From contig JBFMCO010000052.1 of assembly GCA_040754495.1 (NCBI GenBank), forward strand, positions 1 through 10,862: 10,862 nucleotides of DNA, read 5' to 3'. The stretch comes from Candidatus Micrarchaeota archaeon (GTDB taxonomy: Archaea; Micrarchaeota; Micrarchaeia; Anstonellales; Bilamarchaeaceae). Shown piece by piece: positions 7,599-8,995 of the stretch (position 1 is the stretch's first letter; each line of letters opens with the position of its first letter). A model generated the notes under the pieces. The model worked only from the letters and a program-made list of their open reading frames with translations, searched no databases and was not told the origin of the DNA. Both the position numbers and the translations under genes were made by a program.

Positions 7599-7760
7599 TC
7601 AGGCGCCCGGGACTTGCCCCGCCTTCGCCCTGCGCCGGTATTCGCCGTACGGGTCGTTGGGATTGAAGCGGGCCGGGTGGGCTGATTCGGTCATCGCGCC
7701 GCAGTGCAGCTCTGAGAGCGTATAGGAGCCGCAGGTGCGGCAGATTCGCATCCTCTTCAT
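7599..7760 (-). CDS. nop10: H/ACA RNP protein Nop10 (53 aa)
   Basis: Manual translation: MKRMRICRTCGSYTLSELHCGAMTESAHPARFNPNDPYGEYRRRAKAGQVPGA. Contains YTL, HPARF.P.DPY..YRR. The ATG directly follows the aIF2alpha TGA. Below the ORF-track size cutoff. Confidence 0.92.
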   Translation of the reverse strand: MKRMRICRTCGSYTLSELHCGAMTESAHPARFNPNDPYGEYRRRAKAGQVPGA

Positions 7761-8513
7761 TCACTTCTCCCGGTCCGACTTGAAATCGCAATTGTGTTTC
7801 TGCGCATATGAGCGGATGTGCTCGAGCACGGCCGAGAGGCGCTTTTCCGCGCTCTTGTAGTCAGGCGCGGTCAGGGACACCTTGTAGCGCGGGGCGCCCA
7901 GGTAATGAACGGCGATGTCGTCCCCCACCTCAAGCGCCTTGCGCAGGTCGCTGATCCCGTCCGCGTTGTAGCATACGAGCGTGACGATGGAATCGACCTC
8001 GACTACGGGCTTCTTTATGCTTTTCTGCGCTACCTCCACGATTTTGGCCTTCACGGCCTTCGAGAGCTCGAGCTTCTTGAGAGCGTCCTCGCCCTTCAGG
8101 CTGACCTCCTTGAAGCACGTATAAATGTCGTCGAAGTGGGATTCGATTTCCTTCCTCACGGCGGCCGCGTCACCCGGCGCCTTCGCGGCCTCGAGCGCTA
8201 TCTCAAGGAGCTTCGTCCCCCGCTTCTCGTTCTGGACCATCTCGAGCTTCCGCTTCTTCTCCTCCTCGCTCACGCGCTTTATCGAGATGTCGACCTGGTT
8301 CTTCTCCCGGTCCACGCGGTGGACTTTCATCACGTGCCGCTGGCCCTCGGAGATGAACTCGTGGATGTTCTTTATCCAGCGCGGGGCCACCTCGGAGACG
8401 TGGAGGAACGCCTCGAGGTTGTTGTATTCCGGAAGTATGCAGAACGCGCCGTAGGGCATAATCTTCTTTATGACCGCTATGACCAGTTCGCCCTCGTCAG
8501 GAAGCTCGACTAT
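7761..8513 (-). CDS. eif2a: Translation initiation factor 2 subunit alpha (aIF2alpha); start inferred at non-canonical ATA 8513
   Basis: S1 domain LPDEGELVIAVIKKIMPYGAF...EAFLHVSEVA..WIKNI..FISEGQ..VMKV.RVD.EK.QVDISIKRV; C-terminal YLGAPRYKV..APDYKSAEK. Product identity is high confidence. The start is inferred (first in-frame ATG is 8459). Confidence 0.9.
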   Translation of the reverse strand: MVELPDEGELVIAVIKKIMPYGAFCILPEYNNLEAFLHVSEVAPRWIKNIHEFISEGQRHVMKVHRVDREKNQVDISIKRVSEEEKKRKLEMVQNEKRGTKLLEIALEAAKAPGDAAAVRKEIESHFDDIYTCFKEVSLKGEDALKKLELSKAVKAKIVEVAQKSIKKPVVEVDSIVTLVCYNADGISDLRKALEVGDDIAVHYLGAPRYKVSLTAPDYKSAEKRLSAVLEHIRSYAQKHNCDFKSDREK

Positions 8514-8535
8514 CCAATCACCGTCCAGGGGGCGT

Positions 8536-8700
8536 CTAGCCCAGCTCCGCGACTATCTTGCCGTGTATGACGGCCGTCCCCCCGCTCGGGTGGGCGAGAG
8601 GCTCCTTGCATCCGCCGCATTTGATTACCGACGTAGCGTGGCTGAACACGACCTGCTCGTTTCCGCACTTGCATTGCACCTTGAAGTATTTGCCTGCCAT
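8536..8700 (-). CDS. rps27e: 30S ribosomal protein S27e (54 aa)
   Basis: Manual translation: MAGKYFKVQCKCGNEQVVFSHATSVIKCGGCKEPLAHPSGGTAVIHGKIVAELG; SD-like GTGAT 3 nt before the ATG. Not in the ORF track. Confidence 0.93.
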   Translation of the reverse strand: MAGKYFKVQCKCGNEQVVFSHATSVIKCGGCKEPLAHPSGGTAVIHGKIVAELG

Positions 8701-8704
8701 AAAA

Positions 8705-8986
8705 TCACGACTTGAACTCGATTTTCTTCGTGGTCCTTCCTCCGACCACGCGCTCCTGCTTCTTCTTGCAGGTATTGCACTGCAGCACGAGCTTCTGCCT
8801 CTTGCCCTGCTTCTTCACGGTCTTCTCGCCCTTCCTCTTGCTGCCATGGCCTGCGAGCCTGCGCTTATGCCTGCGGTTGCCCGCTGCGAGCGAGCTTGCG
8901 CGCCCCTTGCTGGCTGCCTTGACCTTGTGAAGCTGGTGCTTCTTGCAAAAAGGACAATAGGCGTTTATCTCTTTCGGGAATTTCAT
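8705..8986 (-). CDS. rpl44e: 50S ribosomal protein L44e
   Basis: MKFPKEINAYCPFCKKHQLHKV...GNRRHKRRLAGHG...K...KLVLQCNTCKK. Start ATG 8986 follows SD AGGTGA-AAAAG. Confidence 0.95.
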   Translation of the reverse strand: MKFPKEINAYCPFCKKHQLHKVKAASKGRASSLAAGNRRHKRRLAGHGSKRKGEKTVKKQGKRQKLVLQCNTCKKKQERVVGGRTTKKIEFKS

Positions 8987-8995
8987 CTTTTTCAC

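Follow-up and report, generated by a model that had tools for sequence, protein, structure and literature searches.

Translation in archaea is, to our knowledge, usually said to start at AUG, GUG, and UUG only, and AUA initiates poorly in the systems tested so far. Near-cognate starts assisted by a Shine-Dalgarno (SD) sequence are known from prokaryotes, among them the AUU of E. coli pcnB, and NCBI translation table 11 includes ATA, ATT, ATC, and CTG among its start codons. The bacterial initiation factor gene infC (IF3) has a conserved AUU start (AUA in some species) and is under translational autocontrol, while in eukaryotes eIF1, through the poor context of its AUG, and eIF5, through uORFs in poor context, are autoregulated via start-site stringency. 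The eukaryotic homologue of aIF2-alpha, eIF2-alpha, has Sui- alleles in yeast, and we know of no report that eIF2-alpha itself is regulated through start-site stringency. Archaeal proofreading against AUU has been demonstrated for aIF1 (PMC4705826; PMC6237735).

The aIF2-alpha gene described here, from a tiny uncultured archaeon of the genus Bilamarchaeum (Micrarchaeota, order Anstonellales, family Bilamarchaeaceae), resembles infC in being an initiation factor gene with a conserved candidate AUH start behind an SD and a weak codon that appears to be kept by selection. It differs in that aIF2-alpha is unrelated to IF3 and is not the known archaeal start-codon discriminator, which is aIF1. With eIF1 and eIF5 it would share a link between initiation factor synthesis and start-site stringency, which for aIF2-alpha is a proposal, although these eukaryotic genes act via scanning and Kozak context whereas the present case combines an SD with a near-cognate codon. 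As in pcnB-type starts, a strong SD at optimal spacing would offset a third-base mismatch, but the case is archaeal, concerns a core translation factor, and is conserved across a genus or family.

We analyzed a stretch of 10,862 nucleotides (hereafter "the window"; contig JBFMCO010000052.1), which belongs to a genome assembly of 1.63 Mb with 59.5% GC and 80% completeness. The minus strand of the window carries the conserved archaeal operon L44e-S27e-aIF2-alpha-Nop10, in which all four genes were assigned by Pfam (Table 1). The start of L44e is ambiguous: GTG 8995 abuts the TAG of the upstream gene, and ATG 8986 lies three codons further, behind GGTGAAAAAG.

Table 1 Positions of the operon genes and of the initiation signals of aIF2-alpha in the window
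Feature	Position	Strand	Basis and remarks
L44e ribosomal protein gene	8705..8995	-	Pfam PF00935; start GTG 8995 or ATG 8986
S27e ribosomal protein gene	8536..8700	-	Pfam PF01667, E=6e-15; ATG start, TAG stop 8538-8536
In-frame TAG closing the aIF2-alpha frame upstream	8553..8555	-	Sequence
Shine-Dalgarno GGTGAT	8517..8522	-	Stands alone in the 22-nt spacer between S27e and aIF2-alpha; pairs with the 16S 3' end
ATA, proposed aIF2-alpha initiation codon	8511..8513	-	Sole near-cognate codon of the open frame that is in phase with the SD
First in-frame ATG of aIF2-alpha (residue 19)	8457..8459	-	Start of the public 232-aa gene call; without SD
aIF2-alpha coding sequence, ATA to TGA	7761..8513	-	250 codons plus stop; Pfam S1 and EIF_2_alpha, PDB matches
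Nop10 gene	7599..7760	-	Pfam PF04135; ATG immediately after the aIF2-alpha TGA

A preliminary description of this DNA had stated that the aIF2-alpha frame contains no ATG, GTG, or TTG from the TAG at 8555-8553 to the ATG at 8459, and the minus-strand sequence confirms this. After the TAG, the frame reads TCG CGG AGC TGG GCT AGA CGC CCC CTG GAC GGT GAT TGG ATA GTC GAG CTT CCT, i.e., 13 codons without a canonical start precede the ATA, and the first canonical codon, ATG 8459, falls inside the S1 domain. The stretch from the ATA to this ATG encodes IVELPDEGELVIAVIKKI. A protein with an AUA start would begin (M)VELPDEGELVIAVIK, and one started at ATG 8459 (Met19) would begin MPYGAF. In the ATA-started protein, PF00575 (S1) spans residues 5-79 (E=1e-9), with the match opening at profile position 2 of 74, and PF07541 (EIF_2_alpha) spans residues 119-219 (E=5e-23). 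Matches to archaeal aIF2-alpha structures in the PDB comprise 1yz6 (P. abyssi, E=4e-40), 3aev, and 2aho, and ATA-started residues 3-234 align with 1yz6 chain residues 6-247, residue 3 being placed against residue 6. Based on its S1/OB and EIF_2_alpha domains, its similarity to solved homologues, and its archaeal operon context, the gene product is the a/eIF2 alpha subunit. The stretch ahead of ATG 8459 had also been read as the first strand of the S1 domain, and the Pfam and 1yz6 alignments bear this out: since the S1 match runs from residue 5 and residue 3 aligns with residue 6 of 1yz6, a start at ATG 8459 would delete this strand.

The proposed start unit, GGTGAT-TGG-ATA, has the same geometry as the S27e start GTGAT-TTT-ATG, as previously suggested, and the ATG and TTG starts of the genome peak at this same SD spacing (33 ATG, 11 TTG, 7 GTG, and 2 ATA at GGTGA + 9 nt). 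The motif GGTGATNNNATA is found once in the window versus 0.03 occurrences expected by chance, and the decisive evidence for the observation is conservation in relatives. We therefore rely on 81 distinct aIF2-alpha loci of related Micrarchaeota, gathered by a search for relatives and one scan of species-representative genomes and anchored on the conserved Pro; six further loci with plain ATG starts did not fit the anchor pattern and were left out. The preliminary description had proposed tabulating the codon that follows GGTGAT in relatives. In 40 of the 81 loci, the SD-phased codon, which follows the first G of GGTG at a distance of 9-10 nt, is not a canonical start; it is ATA, ATT, or ATC in 39 (33, 4, and 2, respectively) and CTG in one. 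The proposal of initiation at ATA behind an SD is thus strongly supported by this comparison. At this codon, more distant relatives and outgroups carry ATG or TTG, 9-11 nt downstream of GGTG and four codons ahead of the conserved Pro. In 18 of the 81 loci, no canonical codon exists anywhere between the upstream stop and the conserved Pro, and in 10 a stop codon stands immediately ahead of the ATA or ATC. The single CTG locus (L086, JBBIHC010000004.1) reads GGTGAT-GAA-CTG in an open frame without a canonical start.

Canonical codons do occur close to the ATA in some relatives. In four of them an ATG, GTG, or TTG immediately precedes the ATA, and as this codon is just 0-3 nt from the SD, it is the ATA that still sits at the usual spacing. 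In about 17 relatives, the GTG within GGTGAT is in frame, three codons upstream of the ATA and overlapping the S27e stop. This GTG could serve as a start there, and NCBI uses it in one relative (P0014), although in the window this GTG falls in another frame.

On the protein tree, a clade of 35 species (SH-aLRT 93) comprises 31 with ATA, one each with ATT, ATC, and GTG, and one with an odd N-terminal extension. At one locus (L066, JACRGD010000007.1), neither SD nor ATA is found, and a 26-codon N-terminal extension rich in Pro, Ala, and Thr opens with a GTG directly after a stop. Within the wider clade of 60 species, the remaining non-canonical lineages are interspersed with canonical ones on the protein tree, such that canonical and non-canonical codons must have interchanged at least four times, with eight changes being the more parsimonious account. 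Across the 35-species clade, the pattern of amino-acid conservation with free synonymous change starts at the ATA; one codon further upstream, a stop is found in 7 of 35 species and conservation is lost.

These comparisons bear on the conventional alternative, in which translation begins at ATG 8459, matching the public 232-residue call, and the protein does without the first S1 strand. This ATG is the first canonical codon of the frame and the one used by automatic gene calls. However, no SD precedes it, the 18 codons upstream of it are under protein-level selection, and the residues that would be lost align with the N-terminus of solved aIF2-alpha. Moreover, in three relatives it is replaced by CAA or CAG, and no canonical codon follows until 32 codons past the conserved Pro. 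We consider a start at this ATG highly improbable.

Other ways around the missing canonical start are less probable still. The preliminary description had raised a G-to-A assembly error at 8511 as one alternative, which the presence of the ATA in 33 independent assemblies excludes, and a CTG start at 8528 as another; this CTG precedes the SD and lacks conservation, with CTG at that position in 3 of 35 species. An S27e/aIF2-alpha fusion produced by frameshifting or readthrough is likewise excluded, as the phase between the two genes varies by species (+1, -1, or 0) and a stop lies directly before the ATA in 10 species. Apart from the missing canonical start itself, nothing favors an artefact or any such decoding, and we give these explanations next to no credence.

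The SD provides a further distinction between the two groups of loci. In three genomes of the same genus, the 16S 3' end reads ...GAUCACCUCC, with which GGUGAU pairs perfectly; the anti-SD was read from these genomes since the 16S gene of the assembly itself is cut by a contig end (contig 48, 6425-7267, model position 828). An SD match of at least 6 nt accompanies 31 of the 40 non-canonical starts versus 6 of the 39 canonical-start relatives, and mean SD duplex energies are -10.1 kcal/mol and -7.6 kcal/mol, respectively. Most relatives with ATH-type codons have GGTGAT at a distance of 3-4 nt ahead of the start. On the decoding side, a motif search found the initiator tRNA of the genome to have an ordinary CAU anticodon. 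The corresponding initiator-type gene (contig 22, minus strand, index 27595-27703 of the reverse complement) combines A1:U72, three anticodon-stem G:C pairs, and CAU; it is interrupted after position 9 by roughly 30 nt that probably represent an intron in a non-canonical location. This gene was missed by ARAGORN, which identified 17 tRNAs in the genome, mostly with introns, and found neither tRNA-Met nor tRNA-Ile.

The proximity of S27e could suggest instead that ribosomes finishing this gene simply restart at the nearest usable codon, with the SD and ATA mattering little. In most relatives, S27e ends on the TGA contained in GGTGA, which leaves 4-5 nt to the ATA, in some S27e overlaps the ATA, and Nop10 in turn adjoins aIF2-alpha as TGA-ATG, all of which would suit termination-reinitiation. 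In the window and its closest relatives, however, the S27e stop lies 20-50 nt upstream of the ATA, yet GGTGAT-NNN-ATA is kept, and conservation of an SD that is free-standing in such a spacer is not a by-product of the S27e stop. More generally, the S27e stop falls ahead of the SD-ATA unit, within it, or beyond it depending on the species, whereas the SD-ATA spacing is constant. Termination-reinitiation as the whole explanation is thus improbable in our view. At loci L008, L046, and similar ones, S27e runs through both SD and ATA and stops at a TGA overlapping aIF2-alpha codons 2-3 (ATAGTTGA).

If AUA is the start, its third base should be informative about selection, as a single A-to-G change would restore ATG. 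In the 35-species clade, where the GC3 of the aIF2-alpha gene ranges from 0.23 to 0.85 and synonymous sites are saturated, the third base A of the start ATA is kept in 31 of 35 species (0.89). For comparison, we considered the silent columns at conserved residues (35 multi-fold and 68 two-fold), in which the commonest third base has a median frequency of 0.51 and 0.69, respectively. None of these columns reaches 0.89, the multi-fold maximum being 0.83, and 0 of the 68 two-fold columns reach 0.94. ATA likewise makes up 94% of Ile codons at the start position versus 57% at conserved Ile columns. ATA is the commonest Ile codon in these genes, and its constancy at the start could come partly from codon bias. 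Being one transition away from ATG without this change having spread, and with a third base more constant than any silent site, the weak start codon appears to be selected for, not merely tolerated.

This pattern is difficult to reconcile with a neutral explanation, in which start-codon checking in Micrarchaeota would be loose and a change from ATG to ATA behind a strong SD tolerated without any function. The weak codon is also largely specific to aIF2-alpha. At the same loci, the operon neighbors use conventional starts: L44e has ATG in 45 of 45 cases, Nop10 a canonical codon in 43 of 44, and S27e an ATG at the aligned start or at most 3 codons from it. Among the other initiation factors of the genome, aIF1, aIF2-beta, and aIF2-gamma start with ATG and aIF1A with TTG behind GGTGAT-GTT, and ATG is also the start of RNase HII, S15, and Mrp. 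Genome-wide scans for ATA, ATT, ATC, CTG, or ACG behind GGTGA, GGTG, AGGT, or GAGG revealed no enrichment over control codons, spurious ORFs dominating the output of the loosest scan at the 60% GC of this genome, and strong-SD genes, as counted above, are not enriched in ATH starts.

Only aIF2-alpha and one other gene, encoding a zinc-ribbon membrane protein, stood out in these scans, and this second gene is a point in favor of neutral tolerance, with GGTGAT-GCT-ATA and no canonical start. Given the conservation of the A and the canonical starts elsewhere in the genome, we consider that explanation unlikely, though somewhat less so than reinitiation alone. The zinc-ribbon gene (contig 59, 8099-8488, plus strand; L116/L117) has no ATG, GTG, or TTG before the zinc ribbon and likely represents a second ATA start. 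Its counterparts in three relatives of the same genus show ATA or ATT at the equivalent SD-phased position, followed three codons later by an ATG, which is ACG in the present genome. Further candidates with ACG or CTG behind GGTGAT, namely GrpE (contig 62), an ORF on contig 36, and Lon (contig 65), were rejected since each has a plausible canonical start a few codons downstream.

We consider it likely that aIF2-alpha is translated from the AUA at 8513-8511, directed by the SD, into a full-length product, with the weak codon being kept by selection. GGUGAU, 3 nt upstream of the AUA, would pair with the 16S 3' end and thereby place the 30S subunit, and the initiator Met-tRNA (anticodon CAU) would pair with AUA despite a mismatch at the third base. 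Initiation there would yield the 250-residue full-length aIF2-alpha, presumably with an N-terminal Met, and may be assisted by coupling to S27e translation. The combination of weak codon and strong SD would have arisen where an ancestor had ATG or TTG, and selection would have maintained it throughout the genus Bilamarchaeum and much of the family. Most likely, this arrangement would restrict aIF2-alpha synthesis compared with that of the co-transcribed ribosomal proteins, and would tie it to the strictness of start-codon checking.

This dependence could in principle close a loop like that of IF3 and the AUU start of infC, as the preliminary description had proposed: strict checking would reject AUA, a shortage of aIF2 or aIF2-alpha, or relaxed fidelity, would permit it, and aIF2-alpha would adjust its own synthesis. 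Archaeal aIF2 requires alpha for tRNA binding, so a scarcity of alpha should lower all initiation, which counts against such a loop. Another point against it is that the known archaeal discriminator is aIF1, not aIF2-alpha; on the other hand, archaeal pre-initiation complexes reject AUU only when aIF1 is present (PMC4705826). The retention of ATA rather than ATG by selection, the restriction of such a start to aIF2-alpha alone among the initiation factor genes of the genome, and the canonical starts of its operon neighbors would all fit autoregulation. Simple expression tuning accounts for the same data, however, and no conserved RNA structure or operator is seen around the start, where the predicted fold of positions 8470-8560 does not exceed shuffled controls (z=-0.1). 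We thus regard autoregulation as a tentative and rather doubtful extension of SD-directed initiation at AUA.

Public gene calls for aIF2-alpha differ in length, at 213, 232, or 250-255 residues, and the shortened ones lack part of the S1 domain. NCBI annotation calls the ATA start in three relatives, whose proteins begin MVELP. The public cluster holding the product of the window begins MPYGAF (232 aa), and the entry for Ca. Bilamarchaeum dharawalense, the type species, begins MHVSEV (213 aa). The finding thus reveals annotation errors in public aIF2-alpha gene calls. The preliminary description had known of no account of a non-canonical aIF2-alpha start, and our literature searches likewise found no paper on one.

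Judging from comparative genomics, the conserved AUA start is very probably used for aIF2-alpha across about 40 species, making this a core initiation factor gene with an AUA start that is conserved and under selection. There is a small chance that it also reflects an aIF2 feedback on start-codon stringency in Archaea, which would have arisen independently in Micrarchaeota as a counterpart of infC/IF3 and eIF1 autoregulation; if so, aIF2-alpha synthesis from AUA would rise as initiation fidelity, or the activity of aIF2 or aIF1, falls. These genes offer a natural substrate for studying how the archaeal pre-initiation complex (aIF1, aIF1A, and aIF2) handles near-cognate codons behind an SD, and they raise the question of whether archaea couple the supply of initiation factors to start-codon stringency, as bacteria and eukaryotes do.
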